Assembly (NCBI GenBank): GCA_965216565.1
Contig: OZ244170.1
Location: forward strand, 2,720,001-2,784,000
From: Bythopirellula sp.
GTDB lineage: Bacteria; Planctomycetota; Planctomycetia; Pirellulales; Lacipirellulaceae
Reading direction: 5' to 3'
DNA length: 64,000 bases
Each line of letters starts with the position of its first letter. The first letter of the stretch is position 1. Shown here piece after piece: positions 46,006 to 56,608 of the stretch. The notes below the pieces were generated by a model. It searched no databases. It was not told the DNA's origin and saw nothing but the letters and a program-made list of their open reading frames with translations. The position numbers and the translations under genes are program-made.

Positions 46006-47391
46006 TCAATTGCTTGCTGAATTCTGTGAGCCGAGCTCCGTGACCAACTGCGACATTTGTTCGTAGTCTTGCCATTCGCATTCTGTGCAGTCCTCGGTCA
46101 ATACAGGATACTTCCTACGTCTGAGGTTGTGATTCAGGACCAGGTATCTTGTCGATTGGGTCCGAGAACAAATGCAAAGCGTATGGGTCGAGGCAGTACC
46201 GACGTCGAGATAGCGGACCCCATCCAAGAGAGCCGATTCCCCTACACCCGTGGCAATGAGAAACACGTCTTTGTTGCTCGCCACAAACGAAGACGCATCG
46301 CCGAACTTGGCATCATTCACGTAGGCGACCTTTTTGGTCTTTACTCCCTTCTCTACCACCTCTTCCGCTTGTAATGGCACCCATTTGTTTTTCGTCACTT
46401 CTTTGCACTCAATCCATTTCACCGGGATATGGAATACCTTTCCGCCAGTTGCCATGGCAGCGGAGGAGATGAACGCGGCCTCAATGGGTTTGACGATTGC
46501 CGCAAAGGCGTCGATTCCCACCGTACCCAAGCAAGCGCTAATAGCACCCCCCACGGGTGAGCCGGCAAAAGTTCGCAGTCTCCATTTCACTCCCAATGAC
46601 CGCCGAAACGGGCTGATGTCTTTGTTCTCTAACGTCCCCACGGTGAACTGTTCCAGCCGTTTGCCGGAGTGCCGACACGCGTCTTGAATTAGTTTTCTAA
46701 GGACAGAAACTACATCCGAGTGGCTGTTGTCTGCCGTTGACTGTAGCCATTCGTTGGGGTCGAAGGATTCCCCCGCAGCATTCAACGAAGCGGCGATTGT
46801 TGAGCTAACGCATACGGTCAGATATTCGTCCGCCACGATTCGTTGAGGTCTCCCTCGAATGTCTCTGACAATCTCTCCGTCGGCATCCTTCTTCAGCACG
46901 TCGCGGAACGAGCCTGGAGGTCCGCCAACTATCATTGAAGCTGCTCCGGTGTAACCTCGTAGTAAGTCGCCGAGTCCATCTACGGGAATGCAGAGTAACT
47001 CTAGATCCAGATCTGGTTTTTCACGGCGCTCAAGTAGTGCACGGAAAGGTTTCCAAATCTGTTCGGCGTAATCGGGTTTATGATAGAAAGCTGCCGTTTC
47101 CTGTAACTCGGCAAACCGGATATTGAAATTCGCGTCGGCCAAGTAACCTAACATGGTACGCAACACCAGACGTCCGACCGTGGGCCGATACATTCCGCGG
47201 TCTTCGGTATCGTGACCTCCGATTCCTCGACCCATCAGCAAACTTGCCAGAATGCTGGCTTGTTCGGTGCATCTTGTCAGGTCTAACGCAGCGAGTCGAA
47301 CAGCAAGTTGCTCTGAGTTTTCTTTCTGCTCGCTTTCGAATTCTTCTGCTGCATTAAGGGTTGGGGGCGTTTGTGTCATGGGATCGATCAT
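46006..47391 (-). CDS. Divergent class II fructose-1,6-bisphosphatase (GlpX)-fold protein lacking catalytic motifs
   Basis: LDLTRCTEQA..MGRG, PVDG, DVFLIATGV..LLDGVRY and THTL..SRT..TRY align in order with GlpX. Confidence 0.7.
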   Translation of the reverse strand: MIDPMTQTPPTLNAAEEFESEQKENSEQLAVRLAALDLTRCTEQASILASLLMGRGIGGHDTEDRGMYRPTVGRLVLRTMLGYLADANFNIRFAELQETAAFYHKPDYAEQIWKPFRALLERREKPDLDLELLCIPVDGLGDLLRGYTGAASMIVGGPPGSFRDVLKKDADGEIVRDIRGRPQRIVADEYLTVCVSSTIAASLNAAGESFDPNEWLQSTADNSHSDVVSVLRKLIQDACRHSGKRLEQFTVGTLENKDISPFRRSLGVKWRLRTFAGSPVGGAISACLGTVGIDAFAAIVKPIEAAFISSAAMATGGKVFHIPVKWIECKEVTKNKWVPLQAEEVVEKGVKTKKVAYVNDAKFGDASSFVASNKDVFLIATGVGESALLDGVRYLDVGTASTHTLCICSRTQSTRYLVLNHNLRRRKYPVLTEDCTECEWQDYEQMSQLVTELGSQNSASN

Positions 47392-48147: not shown

Positions 48148-49380
48148 ATGCCAATAGACACGCGAAAGAATCTGGAAGAGGCTCCAGCTAACGATACAGC
48201 GAACCACGACGGTCACGACTCCAAATCACGATGGCTCAGCTACGCTGCCGCGGGAGCAGCAGGTGCCGCGGCGGTTGCCGTCGGGTCTCAGGGCGATGCG
48301 GCACTGGTCTTGAATTCTGGCGATCTCGCCATGGGTTCGCTGCCTTATACGTTGACGCCTGACGAAGACCTCGCCTTGGATTTGAATAACGATGGCAACG
48401 TCGACATAACTTTACGCAATAGGCAAAGCCTCAACTTTTCCAACGACCCCAACTTAGGCGGACGGGCATTTGTTGATGGTTATTTTCTGGGAGCTTTCGG
48501 TCAGTACAATGGCAGCGGTGGTACGTACAACTACACAATTAACTTTAGCCGTGTCTCTTCGATTGGCCCAAATTTCACGAAGGACTTTTCCCCTCCTGTC
48601 TCGACGGGGGGCTCCACGTTATCGCAGGCAAACGGTTTCTGGGACTACGCAGTTGTTCAAGGTGCTGCTACTACGTCATCCTTCTTTTATGGAGGGTATG
48701 TGCGGGATGGTGGTGCCGGATTCCCGCTGAGTGGCTGGGGCAGCTGGTACGGAAGTAGCCCTCAATACACCAACAATGCTCCAGGCTTCCTGGGCGTCCG
48801 CTTTGATATCGGCGGCAGCACGCACTACGGGTTTGTTGAAATGGATATCGACCTTTCGGTCCTCAATGCGGCTGGTGGGTCGGCCAATGTGCTGAGGATA
48901 CTGAGCTATGGGTTTGAGGACGTTGCCGATGCCCAGATCAGTGGCCCCGGCGATGCGAATTTTGAACGGAACGATGCGGTTCCTATTGAATTCCAACTCG
49001 ATCCTGATCCAAATGCCGCTGACCCAAATGCCCTGGTTCGCGTTTATCCCAGCGGAATCGAAACCAATTGGCTGCGAGCCCAAGACCACGTCGACGGTTT
49101 AGATTTCTTGAAATGGCAAACTGGATTTGGCGATCCCAATGCCACACAGCGGGACGGCGATGCCAATCGCGACGGCGTTGTCGATGGCCAAGACTTGGCA
49201 ATTTGGGAAAACCAATATGGGGAAGCGCGAAGCCACGACAATACGCAGGTACCGCTTAATCCCAATGTTGCCACGGTTCCGGAACCGAATTCCTTGGGCC
49301 TACTCGCCTTGGGAGCCTCCGGGTTGATGGTGTTACGACGATTCCGTCGTTTGCAACGCAAGCAGAATCAGGGAGAGTGA
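48148..49380 (+). CDS. PEP-CTERM protein with RWLSYAAA leader and dockerin-like repeats
   Basis: GGAG RBS; DLNNDG, FLGVRFDIGG.THYGFVE, VPEPNSLGLLALGA..RRFRR. Confidence 0.88.
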   Translation: MPIDTRKNLEEAPANDTANHDGHDSKSRWLSYAAAGAAGAAAVAVGSQGDAALVLNSGDLAMGSLPYTLTPDEDLALDLNNDGNVDITLRNRQSLNFSNDPNLGGRAFVDGYFLGAFGQYNGSGGTYNYTINFSRVSSIGPNFTKDFSPPVSTGGSTLSQANGFWDYAVVQGAATTSSFFYGGYVRDGGAGFPLSGWGSWYGSSPQYTNNAPGFLGVRFDIGGSTHYGFVEMDIDLSVLNAAGGSANVLRILSYGFEDVADAQISGPGDANFERNDAVPIEFQLDPDPNAADPNALVRVYPSGIETNWLRAQDHVDGLDFLKWQTGFGDPNATQRDGDANRDGVVDGQDLAIWENQYGEARSHDNTQVPLNPNVATVPEPNSLGLLALGASGLMVLRRFRRLQRKQNQGE

Positions 49381-49474
49381 ATCTTTGTCCCCGTCCTGAG
49401 TGGCAGTAGGGTGGATTGGCAGAACCAGTTTTCGAACACTACTAAATTTTGATACTTCGAGAGGGAGACGTCTA

Positions 49475-50221
49475 ATGAAGTCGAACAAAGAGAATACTAG
49501 TCAACGCAAGTGGAACAAAAAAAACGAGAGCAAGAGTTCCAAGGGCCGTTGGCTAAGCTATGCCGCCGCCACAGGTGCCGCAGCTTTAACCGCTGGCCAG
49601 GCAGACGCAGTCACATTGCAATTCCCTGGTAGCGGAAGTGTCGGACCCGATGGATCGGTGGCGCTCGACCTCAATGGCGATACAACCACTGACGTCACCA
49701 TCTTCAATTTGTACAGCACAAGCTTCTATGGTACAGGCTCGGCGGGAAGGGCCGGTGCAAGCGGGTCGGTGCTCGGCTACTACGGTGGCTACTTCAGTAC
49801 TGGCAAGTCTTACCTCTATGCGAAGAAGTTCAGCAACTTCTCGTCGATCACGCCAAGTTTTTCGGGTCCAGGGAATCCTGGCTACTACACCTCGGGCATC
49901 AACAGCGGTACCCAGCATTACATGCGAGATGGTAACGGTTTCCCCCTTAGTGGATGGGGCGGAAGCTACAATGGCCCTGGTCTGTTGGGTGTTCGCTTCG
50001 ATATCGGCGGCAATTCGCACATGGGATTCGTAGAAATCTCTGTGGACCCCAGTAACAACACCAATGGAGCACCTGGCAATATTCCTACTATTATTAGCTT
50101 TGGATACGAAACGCAGCCAAACACGGCGCTAAGCAATCCCGTCCCGGAGCCAACCTCGTTAGGCTTGCTCGCCATGGGAGCTGCGGGTTTGGCAACTCTG
50201 CGTCGACGTCGCAAAGCATAG
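49475..50221 (+). CDS. PEP-CTERM protein, paralog of the 48148 gene
   Basis: GAGGGAG RBS; RWLSYAAA, RDG.GFPLSGWG, LLGVRFDIGG.SHMGFVE, VPEPTSLGLLAMGA..RRRRK. Confidence 0.88.
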   Translation: MKSNKENTSQRKWNKKNESKSSKGRWLSYAAATGAAALTAGQADAVTLQFPGSGSVGPDGSVALDLNGDTTTDVTIFNLYSTSFYGTGSAGRAGASGSVLGYYGGYFSTGKSYLYAKKFSNFSSITPSFSGPGNPGYYTSGINSGTQHYMRDGNGFPLSGWGGSYNGPGLLGVRFDIGGNSHMGFVEISVDPSNNTNGAPGNIPTIISFGYETQPNTALSNPVPEPTSLGLLAMGAAGLATLRRRRKA

Positions 50222-50258
50222 GCTTTGGCGAATACAATAGAGAGACTAGGTATCTGGG

Positions 50259-50285
50259 CAGCCGTTTCCCCACAGGAAGCGGCTG
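50259..50285 (+). terminator. Stem-loop between the PEP-CTERM genes and the sulfotransferase fusion
   Basis: cagccgtttcc-ccaca-ggaagcggctg with only a weak U-tract. Confidence 0.45.
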
Positions 50286-50338
50286 TCTTGCAATGTATTT
50301 GGTCACAAGCATTACGAAGGAATAGGTAAGAGCGAAAC

Positions 50339-53077
50339 ATGGCCGACACCCCTCGACGTCCAAAAGTCTTGCTAATTGGCTGGGACGGAGCAGACTGGCA
50401 GCATATCGAGCCATTGCTGGAACAGGGGTTGATGCCCAATCTGCAACGGATGATCTCCGGCGGGGTGATGGGTAACATCGCCACCCTCAACCCAATCTTG
50501 AGCCCAATGCTTTGGAACTCCGTGGCCACTGGTAAGATGGCCGACGAGCACGGAATCCTGGGGTTCAGCGAGCCTGACCCCGTTAACGGTGGTTCGCGAC
50601 CGTGCGCCAGTACGTCGAGAAAAGTGAAGGCGCTTTGGAATATCCTTTCGCAGGAAGGACTCGAAAGCAACATCGTCAATTGGTGGGCCAGCCATCCAGC
50701 CGAGCCAATCCGAGGTGCGATGGTTTCTAATTCATACCCCCACTCTCCATTTGTCCGGCAAAAGGGTTGGAAGAACCTCCCTGGACTGACTCACCCACCG
50801 GAATTAATCGACCAAATTGGCGAATTTCGGATGCATGTGACGGAAGTCACCGACCAAGAAATTTTGCCTTTTATTCCTCTCGCTGGCAAAGTCGACCAGG
50901 AGGAAGACCGTCTACTGGAAGTTTTTGCTAAGCAATTTGCCCAATGTGTCGCTATCCAATCGGCCGGCACCTGGTTGATGGAAAATCGTTCCTGGGATTT
51001 TACGGCAATTTACTTTGAAGGGATCGATCACTTCTGCCATGGGTTTATGCATCTGGCACCGCCACGGTTGCCTTATGTCAAGGAAGAGCAGTTTGAAATC
51101 TATAAGGACGTGATCACCGGAGCCTACCGATTCCATGACATGATGCTCGGCAGGCAATTGGCATTGGCTGGCGATGATGCCCATGTCATCCTCTGCTCGG
51201 ACCATGGATTCTTGAGCGGTGATCATCGGCCTCGCTTCACGCCCCGCGAACCTGCTGGACCGGCTTATTGGCATCGCGAGTTGGGTATTTTTGTGATGAA
51301 GGGACCGGGAATCCGTCGCGACGAGTTAGTGTTTGGTACTAGCCTGCTCGACATCACACCGACAATTCTCCACTTGTTCGGGCTACCGATTGGCGAGGAC
51401 ATGCGGGGCAGAGTTCGTCTGGATGCCTTTGAATCGCCGACCGAGGTGAAGACTATCCCCTCTTGGGAAGATGTCACCGGCGAGAGTGGGCAACATCCTC
51501 CAGGGACGGAGATGGATGCAGAGACCTCAAACGAATTGATGGAGCAGTTCGTAGCCTTGGGATATATCGAAGATCCTGGAAAAAACAAAGAAGAAGCGGC
51601 TCACAAGGCCGACATTGAGCTCCAATACAACTTAGCCAGAGTCTATTTGTTTACTGGTCGCCCTGACGAGGCAATGAAGATTTTTGAGCGCCTTACAGAG
51701 GACTCGCCTTGGGAAAATAGGTTCTTGCTAAATTTAGCGCGTTCCTACTACGAGTGTGGCTATTTGCGGCAGGCAGAGCGGCTCATGAGCACTGCCTATC
51801 CCAATGAAGAGAATTCGCCAGCGGTCGCATTGGCCTTGTATGGCCGGATTCTTGTTAGCCTCGGGCAACTCGAAGAGGGCCTCGATTTTCTTCAGAAGGC
51901 AGAAAACAAGCAAGCGACCTTAGCGGGACTGCATGTCGAAATCGCTCGCACTTATCTGGCTCAGCGGCAATGGTCGAAGGCGAAGCAGGCCGCCGAAAGC
52001 GAGCTGGCTCTAAATCCAAATTCTGCAGACGCACATGCCGCGCTAGCGACAGCTTATTTGCGATTGGGCGAGACAGAGGAAGCGATCGACTCAGCTCTGA
52101 CTTCGGTAAGCATCAAACATTGGTCGCCCAACACCCACTTTGTTCTCGGTGTTGCTGCGGCGCGGCTTGAGTGGTTTGAGCGGGCTGAGCGCGCACTGAA
52201 GACGGCAGTGCAGATGAGTCCTGGCCTGATCGTGGCCCATCGAATGCTAGCCAGGATCTATCGTCGCAATTTGGATCAAATAGATCGGGCTGCTTTTCAC
52301 ACAGAATTAGCCCAGCAGGAGCGAGACAGATTCAACGATTCGAGCCAAGCAAGAATGGAACGTGTCGAACAAATCTTTGATCTCCCGTCTATTCCAAATC
52401 CGAAAGAGCGATGGGATACGCTCAACGAGGAGCGACCAAGGGGCAAACCAGGCAAAGAAAAGACCAAGGAAAAGTCCGGCAAGACGTTTACTCTGGTCTC
52501 GGGACTTCCCCGATCGGGGACATCGCTAATGATGCAAATGCTCGACGCGGGGGGCATGATGCCCAAGACCGATGGCCAGCGTGTCGCAGACGACGACAAT
52601 CCTCAAGGATATCTTGAGTGGGAAGAAATCAAACAGATTGCCAAGAAACCAGAGCTCTTTGAGGAAGAAGATTTAGATCAACAAGTTATCAAGGTAATTT
52701 CGATGTTATTGCCGCAGCTTCCAACAGAGCACGATTATAATGTCATCTTTATGGATCGACCTCCGGAAGAAGTGGCCCGATCCCAGGCCAAGATGATTGA
52801 GCGGCTGGGCACCAAAGGTGCCGAGGGTGGCCCCGACAAAGTCCAACGGCAGCTTCAAGCTCATCGAGGTCAAACCTTGCGTTGGTTGAAAAATGCCAAG
52901 CACATGAATGTTTTGACTGTGGTCTATCCAGAACTGGTGAGCGACCCCGAATCGGAAGTGGCACGTGTGCGAGAGTTCCTGGGTTCTGACCGATTACCAG
53001 TGGCCGAGGCGATGGTAAATGCCGTGAAACCCGAGCTCTATCGGCAGAGACGTGATCAACCAAATGGCGAAGCGTAA
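50339..53077 (+). CDS. AlkP-superfamily (phosphodiesterase-like) + TPR + sulfotransferase fusion protein
   Basis: KVLLIGWDGADW, LSPMLW..ATG, SDHGF; central TPR-like repeats; VSGLPRSGTSLMMQML PAPS-binding motif. Confidence 0.85.
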   Translation: MADTPRRPKVLLIGWDGADWQHIEPLLEQGLMPNLQRMISGGVMGNIATLNPILSPMLWNSVATGKMADEHGILGFSEPDPVNGGSRPCASTSRKVKALWNILSQEGLESNIVNWWASHPAEPIRGAMVSNSYPHSPFVRQKGWKNLPGLTHPPELIDQIGEFRMHVTEVTDQEILPFIPLAGKVDQEEDRLLEVFAKQFAQCVAIQSAGTWLMENRSWDFTAIYFEGIDHFCHGFMHLAPPRLPYVKEEQFEIYKDVITGAYRFHDMMLGRQLALAGDDAHVILCSDHGFLSGDHRPRFTPREPAGPAYWHRELGIFVMKGPGIRRDELVFGTSLLDITPTILHLFGLPIGEDMRGRVRLDAFESPTEVKTIPSWEDVTGESGQHPPGTEMDAETSNELMEQFVALGYIEDPGKNKEEAAHKADIELQYNLARVYLFTGRPDEAMKIFERLTEDSPWENRFLLNLARSYYECGYLRQAERLMSTAYPNEENSPAVALALYGRILVSLGQLEEGLDFLQKAENKQATLAGLHVEIARTYLAQRQWSKAKQAAESELALNPNSADAHAALATAYLRLGETEEAIDSALTSVSIKHWSPNTHFVLGVAAARLEWFERAERALKTAVQMSPGLIVAHRMLARIYRRNLDQIDRAAFHTELAQQERDRFNDSSQARMERVEQIFDLPSIPNPKERWDTLNEERPRGKPGKEKTKEKSGKTFTLVSGLPRSGTSLMMQMLDAGGMMPKTDGQRVADDDNPQGYLEWEEIKQIAKKPELFEEEDLDQQVIKVISMLLPQLPTEHDYNVIFMDRPPEEVARSQAKMIERLGTKGAEGGPDKVQRQLQAHRGQTLRWLKNAKHMNVLTVVYPELVSDPESEVARVREFLGSDRLPVAEAMVNAVKPELYRQRRDQPNGEA

Positions 53078-53080
53078 AGT

Positions 53081-54910
53081 ATGAATGCCCTGCCTAGCAA
53101 AGCGAACCGAGGGGAACGGAGCAGCGACTTGTATTTGCGTAAGCTAAACATCGTGTTCTGCGTTGCTGGACTGCTCCTGGTTTTCGCAAGCCGAGCTCAT
53201 GCCGACACGATCATTAGCCCCACGAACACGAACATTCAATACACGGGCCGGTTCAGTCTCTCCAACCCGTCGCGGCCGGAGTTTGGCTGGTCTGGCAGTT
53301 CTATCATTGCCAATTTTGAGGGGACTTCTCTTTCGGCACGGTTCGACGATGACGGCGATAACTATCTGTACTACAGAATCGACGACGGCGATCCTGTTGA
53401 ATTAAATCTGAGCTCGAGTGCGTCCGACTATCTGCTTGCGTCAGGGTTGTCGGATGGTCAGCACAAGATAGAGATTGGTAAGAAGAGCGAGGGTACCTAC
53501 GGCGAGGTGAAGTTTCTGAATTTCCGACTCGATAATGGAAAAACTTTGACAGCGCCACCGCCCCGACCTCCAAGAAAGCTGATTTTCTTTGGAGACTCCA
53601 ACCAGGCTGGGTATTCCGCAGAAGAGATTTGCGATTGCGGAGGCTCGGAGAACGAAGATAGCTACTATACCTATCCAGCGATCACATCCCGGATGCTCGA
53701 TGCGGAGTTTCAGAATGTCTCGGCAAGTGGAATCACAATATCCCATTCGTGGAATATTCGAAACATCTGGAACAAAACCTATTACGGAAATGGTAGTGGC
53801 CCTACCTGGGATTCTAGTGGCGACGCTCCGGATGCCGTCATTATCAACTTGGGAGCTAACGATCTTTATGCGAGCCAAAGCAAGTCGCAGATCAAGAATG
53901 GCTGGAAGAATTTCATCAGCAACGAGTTGAGAGGTGCCTACCCGAACACGCACATCGTTTTGGCGAACTCCTATGGTTGGGACTCGAACGAACCGGCTAA
54001 CTATGTTCACGAAGCGGTCGAAGAATTGAACAATGCTGGGGATGCAAACGTTTCGTTTGTGAAGTTTCCTTGGCTGTGGAGCCAGGCGCACGCAGTCACT
54101 TTCGAGCAGGCTGGCTTTGCAAATATTTTGGCAGAGCATCTAGCTAACAAACTCGACTTGGAACAGCCCCCTCCGAATCAGCTATCGAGTTTTGCTCCGC
54201 CCGGACAGGTACCCAATGGAGATTTAGAGAAGAGCAACCTACCAGGTGTTCCCGATGGGTGGCGTTTTCAGGGCAGCGGTGCGACCTATGTGGAGGATGC
54301 CAGCGACGCGCACTCTGGAACCGCTTTCGCTCAAGTTACTGGAGGAAACTCATTTTTTTGGCACGCTACCGATGCGATCCCAGGTCATGAGTACCAGTTC
54401 GGAGCCTGGATGCGAAAGAACGGGAATGGAACCAGTGGTAAGCTGCGAATTCAATTCAAAGACCAAGGTCAGCAAGTAATCTCCACGTTCGATAAAATAG
54501 AAGCCGTGGACGAAAATTGGGAGGAAGTATCCTTCACCGCGACTGCCCCAGCGGGGGCCTGGCAAGTCTCTGTTTCCATACTCGCTGGTGGTGCCAATCA
54601 GACAATCGATTTCGATGATCTGGTGCTGGCAGACCTGAACGGCCCGCCCATTGCCCCGGCTGATTTCGATGAAGATGGCGACGTAGATAACGTGGACTTA
54701 GGAATTTGGCACGGTGCGTATGGAAGTAGCTCGCTGGCTGATGCAGATAACGATGGAGACAGCGATGGACTAGATTTTCTCCTTTGGCAAACCAATACAT
54801 CCTCGCAAACGTCAAGTTCGCTGAGCCCTGTGCCAGAACCAACAACATGGATCATTTTCCTGAGTGCTCTAACCGGAGTTAGTACCGTCGGACCTCGAAG
54901 CCTGCGATAG
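53081..54910 (+). CDS. SGNH/GDSL esterase (CE2-like) with CBM-like domain, dockerin-like repeats and PEP-CTERM
   Basis: IQYTGRF, FFGDS..AGY, INLGAND; NGDLE...PDGW domain; ADFDEDGDVD; VPEPTT. Confidence 0.8.
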   Translation: MNALPSKANRGERSSDLYLRKLNIVFCVAGLLLVFASRAHADTIISPTNTNIQYTGRFSLSNPSRPEFGWSGSSIIANFEGTSLSARFDDDGDNYLYYRIDDGDPVELNLSSSASDYLLASGLSDGQHKIEIGKKSEGTYGEVKFLNFRLDNGKTLTAPPPRPPRKLIFFGDSNQAGYSAEEICDCGGSENEDSYYTYPAITSRMLDAEFQNVSASGITISHSWNIRNIWNKTYYGNGSGPTWDSSGDAPDAVIINLGANDLYASQSKSQIKNGWKNFISNELRGAYPNTHIVLANSYGWDSNEPANYVHEAVEELNNAGDANVSFVKFPWLWSQAHAVTFEQAGFANILAEHLANKLDLEQPPPNQLSSFAPPGQVPNGDLEKSNLPGVPDGWRFQGSGATYVEDASDAHSGTAFAQVTGGNSFFWHATDAIPGHEYQFGAWMRKNGNGTSGKLRIQFKDQGQQVISTFDKIEAVDENWEEVSFTATAPAGAWQVSVSILAGGANQTIDFDDLVLADLNGPPIAPADFDEDGDVDNVDLGIWHGAYGSSSLADADNDGDSDGLDFLLWQTNTSSQTSSSLSPVPEPTTWIIFLSALTGVSTVGPRSLR

Positions 54911-55017: not shown

Positions 55018-56082
55018 ATGCATCAATCATCTTTTTCACAACGATATCGAGGTTTCACGCTCGTGGAACTCTTGGTTGTCATTGCTATTATTGGCACTCT
55101 AGTCGCACTATTGTTGCCGGCTGTTCAAGCGGCACGCGAAGCAGCACGCCGCGCTCAGTGTGTAAATAACGCTAAACAACTTTCTTTGGCCGTTCACAAT
55201 TATGAATCGGCTTTCAAGGAATTTCCGCCAGGAGCGATCAACTTCTTCGGAGGAAATTGGGCCCTCAAGATATTGCCTTACCTGGAACAAGGTGCCGTCG
55301 ATCAAGGCTTGGTCGATGGACGAATGGCTGGACTCCCTGACGACGGGAGTGGGTGGATGGGTCCTCCCAATGCTGTAGGTCCTGGTCTGAATTACCAGTT
55401 ACTAGATGGTGTGGTGTTTCCGATGTTTCGCTGCCCCTCGAGCCCTTGGCCGGCACTCAGCTACCCGTACGAGAGTTTTAGTCTTGGCACTTGGGAAATG
55501 TCGCACCAGTTTGCTGTGAACGACTACCTGGGAATCGCGGGCTTCGCCGATCCCAATGACCTCGATCGAGTTTCTAACGAAGGATCGTATGGCATTGCGG
55601 CAGCTAATGGGGCCTTCCAACCCAACGACGGTGTTCCAATTTCTTTCTTTACCGACGGCACCTCGAATACGATGCTGATCGGAGAGCAATCGGGCATTGT
55701 GAACTACCAAGGCGAGGCCGTAGATCAACGAAGTGGCAATTGGGCAGGTGGATTTCTGGGAATGATTGCCGATCAGGTTCCCAAAGGCTGTGGAGAAATG
55801 CCAAATCAGAGAGAGGGACGGTGGTCGAAGAATCACTCCTGTTACTGGGCAGGGCTAACCACGATGCGTTACGCGATTGGTGCGAATGTCCGACCCGCTC
55901 CCGGTGCTCTTGATTCCTGGGATATGAATCAACCGTTGAATTCCTCGCATCCAGGGGGTGTGCATGTTGCTAGGGCTGATGGGGGAGTGATTTTTCTGTC
56001 AGACGCGATCGGACCGGCTGTCCTGCGACCGCTGGCCATCCGTGACGATGGCGAATTAACCCAAGAGAGCTTGACGAATTAG
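55018..56082 (+). CDS. DUF1559 prepilin-type N-terminal cleavage domain protein
   Basis: GFTLVELLVVIAIIG..LLLPAVQAAREAARR.QC.NN; DGTSNT; SSHPGG...ADG. Confidence 0.95.
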   Translation: MHQSSFSQRYRGFTLVELLVVIAIIGTLVALLLPAVQAAREAARRAQCVNNAKQLSLAVHNYESAFKEFPPGAINFFGGNWALKILPYLEQGAVDQGLVDGRMAGLPDDGSGWMGPPNAVGPGLNYQLLDGVVFPMFRCPSSPWPALSYPYESFSLGTWEMSHQFAVNDYLGIAGFADPNDLDRVSNEGSYGIAAANGAFQPNDGVPISFFTDGTSNTMLIGEQSGIVNYQGEAVDQRSGNWAGGFLGMIADQVPKGCGEMPNQREGRWSKNHSCYWAGLTTMRYAIGANVRPAPGALDSWDMNQPLNSSHPGGVHVARADGGVIFLSDAIGPAVLRPLAIRDDGELTQESLTN

Positions 56083-56152
56083 AGTGCAATCGTTCAGCTT
56101 AGCTAATCTTGCAAACAACGTTATAGAATCTAACAACCCTATTCTTACGACT

Positions 56153-56608
56153 ATGCCGAGCCACACGCCTCAATTGAAAGCCTTTTTGTTAGGCCTCGCG
56201 ATTCTTGTTCTGGGGGGGTGTGGACCACAGGGCCCAGACCTGGGGCCATTCGGACCAGTTTCTGGAAAAGTTACCTACCAGGGGAAGCCTGTAGCAAAGG
56301 GTATGATTACTTTCAGCAGTCCCCAGTCCGGTCAATCGGCCACTGCCAACTTAAATTCCGATGGCACTTACGTCATGGAACTAAACGACCGCAACGGGCT
56401 GCCCGTTGGAACGTACAAAATCTGTATTCGGCCACCACTGACTGCCAAGAACGAAACCGATCCTAGCAAGATGCGACGGAACAACCTGTACGATCCAGAG
56501 GTTTCTAAAGACATTCCGATGAAGTACCGCTACGAGAGTACTAGTGGGCTTGAGGAAACTGTTGTCGAAAGCGAAAACAAGTTTGACTTCGACATGTCAC
56601 CCGAATAG
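56153..56608 (+). CDS. Lipoprotein partner of DUF1559 (carboxypeptidase regulatory-like domain)
   Basis: Lipobox LGGC; VSGKVTYQGKPV..G.I.F; IP.KY...SGL; ENKFDFDM. Confidence 0.85.
   Translation: MPSHTPQLKAFLLGLAILVLGGCGPQGPDLGPFGPVSGKVTYQGKPVAKGMITFSSPQSGQSATANLNSDGTYVMELNDRNGLPVGTYKICIRPPLTAKNETDPSKMRRNNLYDPEVSKDIPMKYRYESTSGLEETVVESENKFDFDMSPE

Follow-up and report, generated by a model that had tools for sequence, protein, structure and literature searches.

The stretch of DNA analysed here, called the window in the following, comprises 64,000 nucleotides of contig OZ244170.1 of Bythopirellula sp. (positions 2,720,001 to 2,784,000). It contains three consecutive genes on the same strand, two for secreted proteins, which we call partners, and one for an enzyme in which an alkaline phosphatase superfamily (AlkP) domain, tetratricopeptide repeats (TPRs) and a sulfotransferase (ST) domain are fused (Table 1). 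Together they represent one copy of a gene set that is widespread and found repeatedly in four bacterial phyla. An initial annotation, made from the sequence alone, had described the three open reading frames (ORFs) as tandem PEP-CTERM paralogs with shared sequence blocks followed by a 912-residue fusion without signal peptide, and this description is borne out. The partners (P0001 and P0002) are 37% identical over 248 columns (E 6e-34), and both match PF07589 and TIGR02595 above the cut-off at their C-terminus. The fusion (P0003) begins straight at the AlkP core and matches PF01663 (residues 10-294), TPR families (about 427-645) and Sulfotransfer_1/3 (718-884). The block that had been written as LGVRF..HYG is present, but the shorter partner has HMG instead of HYG. 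In the nearest named locus, which belongs to a Lacipirellulaceae genome and is 78% identical, the gene order is unchanged.

Table 1. Features of the partner and enzyme genes in the window (positions are those of the window).
Feature	Position	Strand	Remarks
Partner 1 (P0001), 410 aa	48148-49380	+	Y-leader, beta-domain at about aa 53-268, weak dockerin-like repeat at aa 337-358, system-type PEP-CTERM tail
Partner 1 leader (W-L-S-Y32-A.. to A-x-A signal-peptidase-type site)	48223-48303	+	Cleavage site inferred from pattern
Partner 1 tail, VPEP-x-SLGLLALG..GL..RR	49273-49341	+	PEP-CTERM match and system-specific motif
Partner 2 (P0002), 248 aa	49475-50221 (ORF open from 49400)	+	Y-leader, beta-domain, system-type PEP-CTERM tail
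Partner 2 leader	49541-49609	+	Conserved Tyr29 at 49559-49561; predicted helix 18-35
Partner 2 all-beta domain	49610-50137	+	LDLNxD..D / G.W / LGVRF..G..H.G[WF] / [GA]YE
Partner 2 tail, VPEPTSLGLLAMGAAGL..RR	50138-50209	+	PEP-CTERM match and system motif
RNA hairpin, gap between partner gene and enzyme gene	50256-50288	+	Predicted stable, z -3.25
AlkP-TPR-sulfotransferase fusion (P0003), 912 aa	50339-53077	+	No signal peptide
AlkP domain of the fusion	50339-51583	+	NPP/PafA-like fold; S55 at 50501-50503
TPR superhelix of the fusion, about aa 417-665	51587-52333	+	Family matches at about aa 427-645
PAPS-type ST domain of the fusion	52472-53053	+	5'-PSB loop GLPRSGTS at 52502-52525; 3'-PB-like R807..S815

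PEP-CTERM-like ORFs number about 260-280 in the genome, according to the pattern used, so that a neighbour of this kind is hardly informative by itself. Only five ORFs of the genome contain the domain shared by the partners, four of which carry a conserved leader and are located directly upstream of the three AlkP-TPR paralogs. These paralogs, in the window, at C1:4006983 (with ST) and at C1:628036 (without ST), all have a family member directly upstream, and they are not the product of one recent duplication, as they fall into three separate clades of a quick version of the enzyme tree. The fifth, leader-less ORF (C1:5200251-5201153) has an ordinary signal and an ordinary tail and no AlkP-TPR neighbour; it lies directly behind a different sulfotransferase-like gene, whose motif was read by eye. 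A stand-alone ST of the same subfamily is encoded at C1:1287507-1299902. It is accompanied by two AlkP proteins of more distant kinship and by a TPR protein of the AlkP/sulfatase-like type, and no partner-family gene is present there. This ST could serve the ST-less paralog in trans.

A search with the fusion scored 6,052 of 7,998 candidates as relatives, a number that TPR matches may inflate. From GTDB the best 80 of 513 enzyme-related stretches were taken, in genomes chosen for the enzyme. The partner family was present in 79 of these 80 genomes and a cognate ST in 78. In 40 loci the partner is located within the flank (22 of 62 if the 18 seed loci are left out), including all nine loci with fused ST, and 39 of the other 40 genomes encode partners elsewhere, with as many as 41 matches per genome. 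Fusion of the ST is seen in nine loci; in 36 the ST is a nearby gene, and for 33 of the remaining 35 it is encoded elsewhere in the genome, by which the idea of an optional ST was overturned. Among 300 unselected Planctomycetota genomes, a close enzyme (E<1e-120) is present in four and the partner domain in six; leader-bearing partners accompany the enzyme in three of its four genomes, and the two domain-only genomes (G166 and G245) have leader-less copies. In a sample of 121 genomes of the order, all five enzyme genomes, two of them known beforehand, have partners, 115 have neither, and one has a partial, stop-containing match only. The partner domain occurs in 20 of 381 Bacteroidota genomes (25 of 42 domain matches were inspected), and all five genomes with leader-bearing copies have the enzyme; the best locus of each of the 15 others, on which this class was judged, has an ordinary signal and no enzyme. 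One of the enzymes (G711) had been missed, its gene being fragmented, and was located only through its partner; the locus (L150) has the full cassette order of partner, mini-peptide and AlkP, and frameshifts break its enzyme gene into pieces. In two more enzyme genomes the adjacent partners are divergent, and one of these was recognised by eye only. A search for the partner family in 151 genomes of the phylum of G301 found it only in G301. The distribution of the system is patchy. Enzyme and secreted family co-occur in Planctomycetota, Acidobacteriota, Bacteroidota, and Gammaproteobacteria, the kind of co-occurrence on which the initial annotation had made its proposal depend. It had suggested examining neighbours of the enzyme for the domain or the leader; in the phylum samples the enzyme tracks leader-bearing members and not the bare domain. 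The genomes are related by kinship and hence not independent, and no P value is attached to these counts. A correlation of enzyme and partner distances (rho 0.70) was not used as evidence because shared ancestry explains it. That partners and enzyme are functionally linked we regard as nearly certain.

It is the leader that predicts the enzyme. Enzyme-linked members have a long, weakly hydrophobic signal with the motif L-x-x-Y-A, in which the Tyr is the best-kept residue (70 of 76 occupied rows), and this leader is found on PEP-CTERM, type IX secretion system (T9SS), and lipoprotein-type proteins alike. It was also considered as a twin-arginine signal, which was rejected because the RR is not conserved. 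No covariation of leader and tail was apparent in a set of 179 proteins (top z 2.5). The partner family comprises 9,599 clusters (50% identity, E<=1e-10). Its domain is predicted to be all-beta in partner 2 (mean pLDDT 71); it matches no Pfam or NCBIfam model, its fold has no Foldseek match at E<=0.001, the best VIA Z score (5.4, to HmuY) is within background, and an atlas search with it returned only clusters named 'hypothetical protein'. The C-termini and anchors vary and include PEP-CTERM, T9SS (TIGR04183), and lipoprotein-type ends (L143, by eye) as well as non-transmembrane tails. Therefore, PEP-CTERM is not essential to the system. In some large Bacteroidota-type proteins (P0137, L158, and L161) the domain is tandemly repeated; these have no leader and contain a zinc-protease-like motif recognised by eye. 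The mature part of partner 2 contains 12 Tyr (6.8%), as had been noted from its sequence, and exceeds all 237 other PEP-CTERM-like proteins of the genome in this respect (mean 2.4%). In Bacteroidota-type domains, Tyr accounts for 6.6% of the residues in the leader-bearing sequences (28) and for 3.9% in the leader-less ones (12); these sequences are not independent of each other. Thr is slightly enriched in the leader-bearing ones. A loop Tyr is found in 64% of leader-bearing and 8% of leader-less domains; it corresponds, as matched by eye, to Tyr113/115 of partner 2, which together with leader Tyr29 would be candidate acceptors.

The tail with its SLGLLALG motif is a part of the system and behaves as an enzyme-associated element, which is borne by the substrate, encoded as a separate mini-protein, or joined to the enzyme. 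The tails belonging to the two other paralogs of the genome, which were outside the training set, rank third and fourth among 262 PEP-CTERM tails. In the 150 top-ranking representatives of the family, the motif is retained where PEP and transmembrane hydrophobicity (median 1.04 versus 1.90) are absent, and the hydrophobicity of the window tails is inside the genome's normal PEP-CTERM range. Where a T9SS signal forms the C-terminus of the partners or these are lipoproteins, the motif is found in an ORF of 50-80 residues just upstream of the enzyme (L065, L076, L140-L143, L150). A metagenome scan with the tail only gave at least 120 stretches, of which 80 loci were examined. The motif ORF was recognised in 76 loci, and the 65 with at least 400 bases downstream are informative: 61 of them contain the AlkP enzyme and the remaining four carry the tail on the C-terminus of a partner. 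The tail shares an ORF with the ST in four metagenome loci and with AlkP-TPR in three; in one of the latter an internal Met is a possible true start, and alternative starts are possible in the others too. For some PEP-CTERM tails, the system would suggest a role beyond sorting. In four of the 80 metagenome loci (L176, L182, L190, and L231), proteins with a phage tail-collar domain (PF07484, checked for L231) are encoded near the cassette.

The fusion was modelled with a mean pLDDT of 88. Its AlkP fold is closest to PafA and the nucleotide pyrophosphatases/phosphodiesterases (NPPs), tied with ENPPs (Z 27.3, rmsd 3.4, 322 aligned residues). Seven residues are invariant in all 95 close rows of the alignment, some of which are duplicated; we take D16, D230, H234, D288, H289, and H312 to be metal ligands and S55 to be the nucleophile, based on the order of motifs and not on superposed coordinates. 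Formylglycine S1 sulfatases have the motif C/S-x-P-x-R, in place of which this family has S-P-M-L-W. In the ST domain, the loop GLPRSGTS, corresponding to the 5'-phosphosulfate binding (5'-PSB) loop, is invariant in all 47 rows of the A1 alignment (the A7 rows had been selected by GLPRSGTS and are uninformative on it). The 3'-phosphate binding (3'-PB) residues R807 and S815 are also invariant and align with the 'R...S' of SULTs, and PF13469 matches 51 of 51 ST rows. Sequence searches of the PDB with single domains gave weak matches only. One genome (G208) has three AlkP-TPR copies with degenerate metal site (L127 8470-14859, L128 3987-5693) that still have leader-bearing partners nearby, and no ST was found in this 91% complete genome. 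This single lineage suggests that AlkP and ST catalysis are coupled, on a TPR scaffold that is able to persist alone. Two of these copies continue past one in-frame stop each; an alternative genetic code was rejected because one stop is TAG and the other TAA. The domain behind the stop matches no family and is GNAT-like by eye, and a weak N-acetyl-sugar amidotransferase-like gene adjoins.

The genome encodes an exosortase and, for sulfate activation, CysD and adenosine 5'-phosphosulfate (APS) kinase; sulfate activation genes are also found in some cassettes. CysD and CysNC flank the cassette at L140, CysC lies between enzyme and partner at L144, and one metagenome locus has CysD and CysC. Genes that supply 3'-phosphoadenosine 5'-phosphosulfate (PAPS) in cassettes and the Tyr enrichment of leader-bearing members favour sulfation. 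At another locus (L145, G637), several distant AlkP proteins are clustered with APS kinase and with what is, by eye, probably a sulfate adenylyltransferase, which would tie the wider AlkP family to sulfate activation.

The genetic coupling of AlkP-TPR, ST, leader-bearing partner, and SLGLLALG tail and the conserved catalytic motifs are observed. Based on these sequence features, we favour, with moderate confidence, the interpretation that the partners are sulfated in the cytoplasm before export, probably on Tyr and guided by leader and tail, and that the AlkP domain performs a coupled step. The weakly hydrophobic leader would mark the substrate and delay its export. The tail helix would bind the AlkP-TPR module and activate or position it, and would be supplied in cis here, in trans by the mini-protein where a T9SS signal occupies the C-terminus, or as part of the enzyme. 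The ST would use PAPS, and the AlkP domain would most likely be a Ser-linked relay that passes the sulfuryl group on, or otherwise a hydrolase clearing adenosine 3',5'-bisphosphate (PAP) or APS. Signal peptidase would then remove the leader, and anchoring could proceed by exosortase, as here, by T9SS, or by lipid. As a result, surface proteins otherwise poor in acidic residues would carry an anionic coat. The initial annotation had already proposed that the fusion modifies these proteins, which is partly supported: enzyme and partners are linked, and PAPS genes and Tyr enrichment favour sulfation. Several observations weigh against sulfation of the partners on Tyr. As had been cautioned, the Tyr residues lack the acidic context of TPST and RaxST acceptors, with at most one D/E within ±5 of any Tyr in partner 2 and at most two in partner 1, and across the family no mature-domain Tyr beyond the structural core is conserved. 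The two-metal NPP-like site is typical of phosphoryl chemistry, and the ST profile is nearer to small-molecule SULTs (best E 1.3e-6) than to TPST (E 7e-4). Four fused loci of a single clade (L057, L067, L070, L077) lack the leader Tyr, and no tail peptide was seen at L144. No PAPS-synthesis genes were found in the first 80 loci, and two of the 35 genomes lacking a fused or nearby ST yielded no cognate ST. In G048 and G330 the enzyme is present and no partner was found, both enzyme loci being at contig ends. Finally, the same ST subfamily also accompanies AlkP proteins lacking a partner, so that ST and AlkP form a more general module; the subfamily is present in 15 of the 46 genomes that have any related AlkP and in 2 of the 34 that have none.

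Other explanations have to be weighed against cytoplasmic sulfation of the partners. That the genes are chance neighbours or merely co-regulated surface genes could be thought of given the many PEP-CTERM-like ORFs of the genome and the unrelated PEP-CTERM esterase that is encoded next. However, this is hardly credible, as chance is largely refuted by the family-specific pairing at all three paralogs, the co-occurrence across phyla, and the fusions of tail and enzyme. The AlkP domain might itself be the writer of a phosphoryl-type group (phosphate, nucleotidyl, or phosphoglycerol), with the ST only making a sulfated donor, activator, or by-product. This would fit the closeness of the fold to the PafA/NPP phosphodiesterases with the full two-metal site and Ser, and also that AlkP-TPR and not the ST is kept beside the partners, with 35 of 80 loci without adjacent ST and none at the third paralog of the genome. 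We nevertheless think it unlikely given the cognate ST in 78 of 80 genomes, the PAPS genes inside cassettes, and the tail that is fused to the ST in four loci.

A different acceptor would be a glycan or lipid-linked sugar that is sulfated and only later attached to Ser/Thr/Asn-rich surface proteins, as with Agl30/31 in haloarchaea. AlkP-fold sulfotransferases acting on a lipid-linked glycan are documented (PMC11980604, PMC3892788), glycosylation has been proposed for PEP-CTERM proteins (PMC1569441), and the mild Thr enrichment of leader-bearing domains would agree. However, no glycosyltransferase family recurs among the top neighbour clusters, as read by eye, Agl30/31 are described as sulfatase-like while this AlkP domain is NPP-like, and a glycan acceptor leaves the conserved cleaved leader and the enzyme-fused tail unexplained, which makes this an improbable solution. 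Little credence is also given to a sensor or quality-control circuit, in which the tail peptide, as a sorting leftover or mini-protein, switches on an AlkP-TPR/ST pair turning over a small sulfated metabolite, and the partners stay unmodified. The occurrence of the tail as free mini-protein or enzyme part, the resemblance of the ST to small-molecule SULTs, and the partners kept by the pseudo-enzyme copies of G208 would all be accommodated. Such a circuit leaves unexplained why Tyr is enriched in leader-bearing members only and why a single enzyme is accompanied by as many as 41 partner matches in a genome.

The ATG of partner 2 at 49475 is preceded by GGGAGA, which is Shine-Dalgarno-like. A rougher shuffle test gave hairpins like that between partner 2 and the enzyme for most of ten partner-enzyme gaps in related cassettes, and a hairpin between the genes would favour more substrate than enzyme. 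No sigma-54 motif was found upstream, and a promoter/terminator scan gave chance level only. The gene following the fusion after three bases (53081-54910, + strand) encodes a CE2/GDSL esterase with CBM4/9 and a PEP-CTERM-like end; a similar gene follows in L001, yet it is not among the top recurring neighbour clusters. On the other side (46006-47391, - strand), a 461-residue protein has a partial match to the GlpX fructose-1,6-bisphosphatase family PF03320 (residues 233-419, E 2.7e-11), is far under the cut-off of TIGR00330, and matches no family in its N-terminal half. An ordinary planctomycete pair of a DUF1559 prepilin-type and a carboxypeptidase-regulatory-like gene is located at 55018-56608 (+ strand).

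No description of the system was found in the literature, subscription papers and bioRxiv supplements being outside the search. Very few systems for protein sulfation are known in bacteria, RaxX together with a few peptides that are made on ribosomes and modified after translation (RiPPs; PMC11143521). The system might work like RaxST-RaxX and like the glycosylation of adhesins with special signals, yet it shares no specific parts with either. In the sulfatyrotide RiPP system of Xanthomonas oryzae, RaxST-RaxX, a PAPS-type ST is likewise encoded with its secreted substrate and acts before leader removal (bioRxiv 10.1101/442517). In contrast, the substrates here are folded proteins of 200-400 residues with Sec-type signals and up to tens per genome, and the system is without double-glycine leader, PCAT exporter, and Asp-Tyr context and adds AlkP-TPR and tail. 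The partners, with 200-500 residues, A-x-A or lipoprotein-type sites, and PEP-CTERM or T9SS ends, are also not RaxX-type RiPPs. In a profile comparison with TPST, any similarity seen to the ST is confined to the P-loop (positions 5-24 for TPST1/2). The pattern of the tail in cis, in trans, and fused to the enzyme recalls RiPP leaders, which activate their enzyme in trans or fused, as the leader of LctM does (bioRxiv 10.1101/442517). Serine-rich repeat adhesins with their KxYKxGKxW signal and GtfA-type glycosyltransferases also combine an extended Gly/Ala-rich motif signal with co-encoded modifying enzymes (PMC3584209), but they are glycosylated, have another motif and no homologous parts, and the sorting signals here vary. 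Agl30/Agl31 of Halobacterium and Agl7 of Haloferax are tied to surface-glycoprotein sulfation, and Agl30/31 are assigned to the AlkP superfamily and act as sulfotransferases (PMC11980604, PMC3892788). They are sulfatase-like and act on the dolichol-linked glycan, whereas the enzyme here is NPP/PafA-like, TPR-fused, and paired with a canonical PAPS ST. With the NPP/PafA branch (PF01663) it shares the fold (Z 25-27) and the layout of two metals and nucleophile, but it is cytoplasmic, has a predicted Ser nucleophile and a TPR fusion, and is at most 22% identical. The partners agree with PEP-CTERM/exosortase sorting (PMC1569441) in that their tails have PEP, a hydrophobic stretch, and a basic cluster and pass TIGR02595 and PF07589, in the N-terminal signal, and in the exosortase of the genome. 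The difference is that the tail motif also occurs without PEP, without transmembrane hydrophobicity, as free mini-protein, or at the N-terminus of the enzyme.

If partners are sulfated in this way, a sulfation route in several phyla would act on some 10,000 clusters of a family that has neither a name nor a solved fold and of which an acidobacterial genome can have as many as 41 matches. Many unannotated cytoplasmic AlkP proteins would also gain a role that can be tested. A further generalisation, which we put forward tentatively and would rather doubt than assert, is a general two-step pathway of bacterial protein sulfation, consisting of a PAPS ST and an NPP-like AlkP relay, for thousands of secreted proteins that are picked by a Tyr-containing signal peptide. 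The two enzymes would be switched on by a short helix, which is overlaid on the PEP-CTERM sorting signal in cis, acts in trans, or forms part of the enzyme. In that case a sorting signal would double as enzyme cofactor, and signal and tail together would be a portable sulfation tag for any exported protein, which may be genetically encodable.

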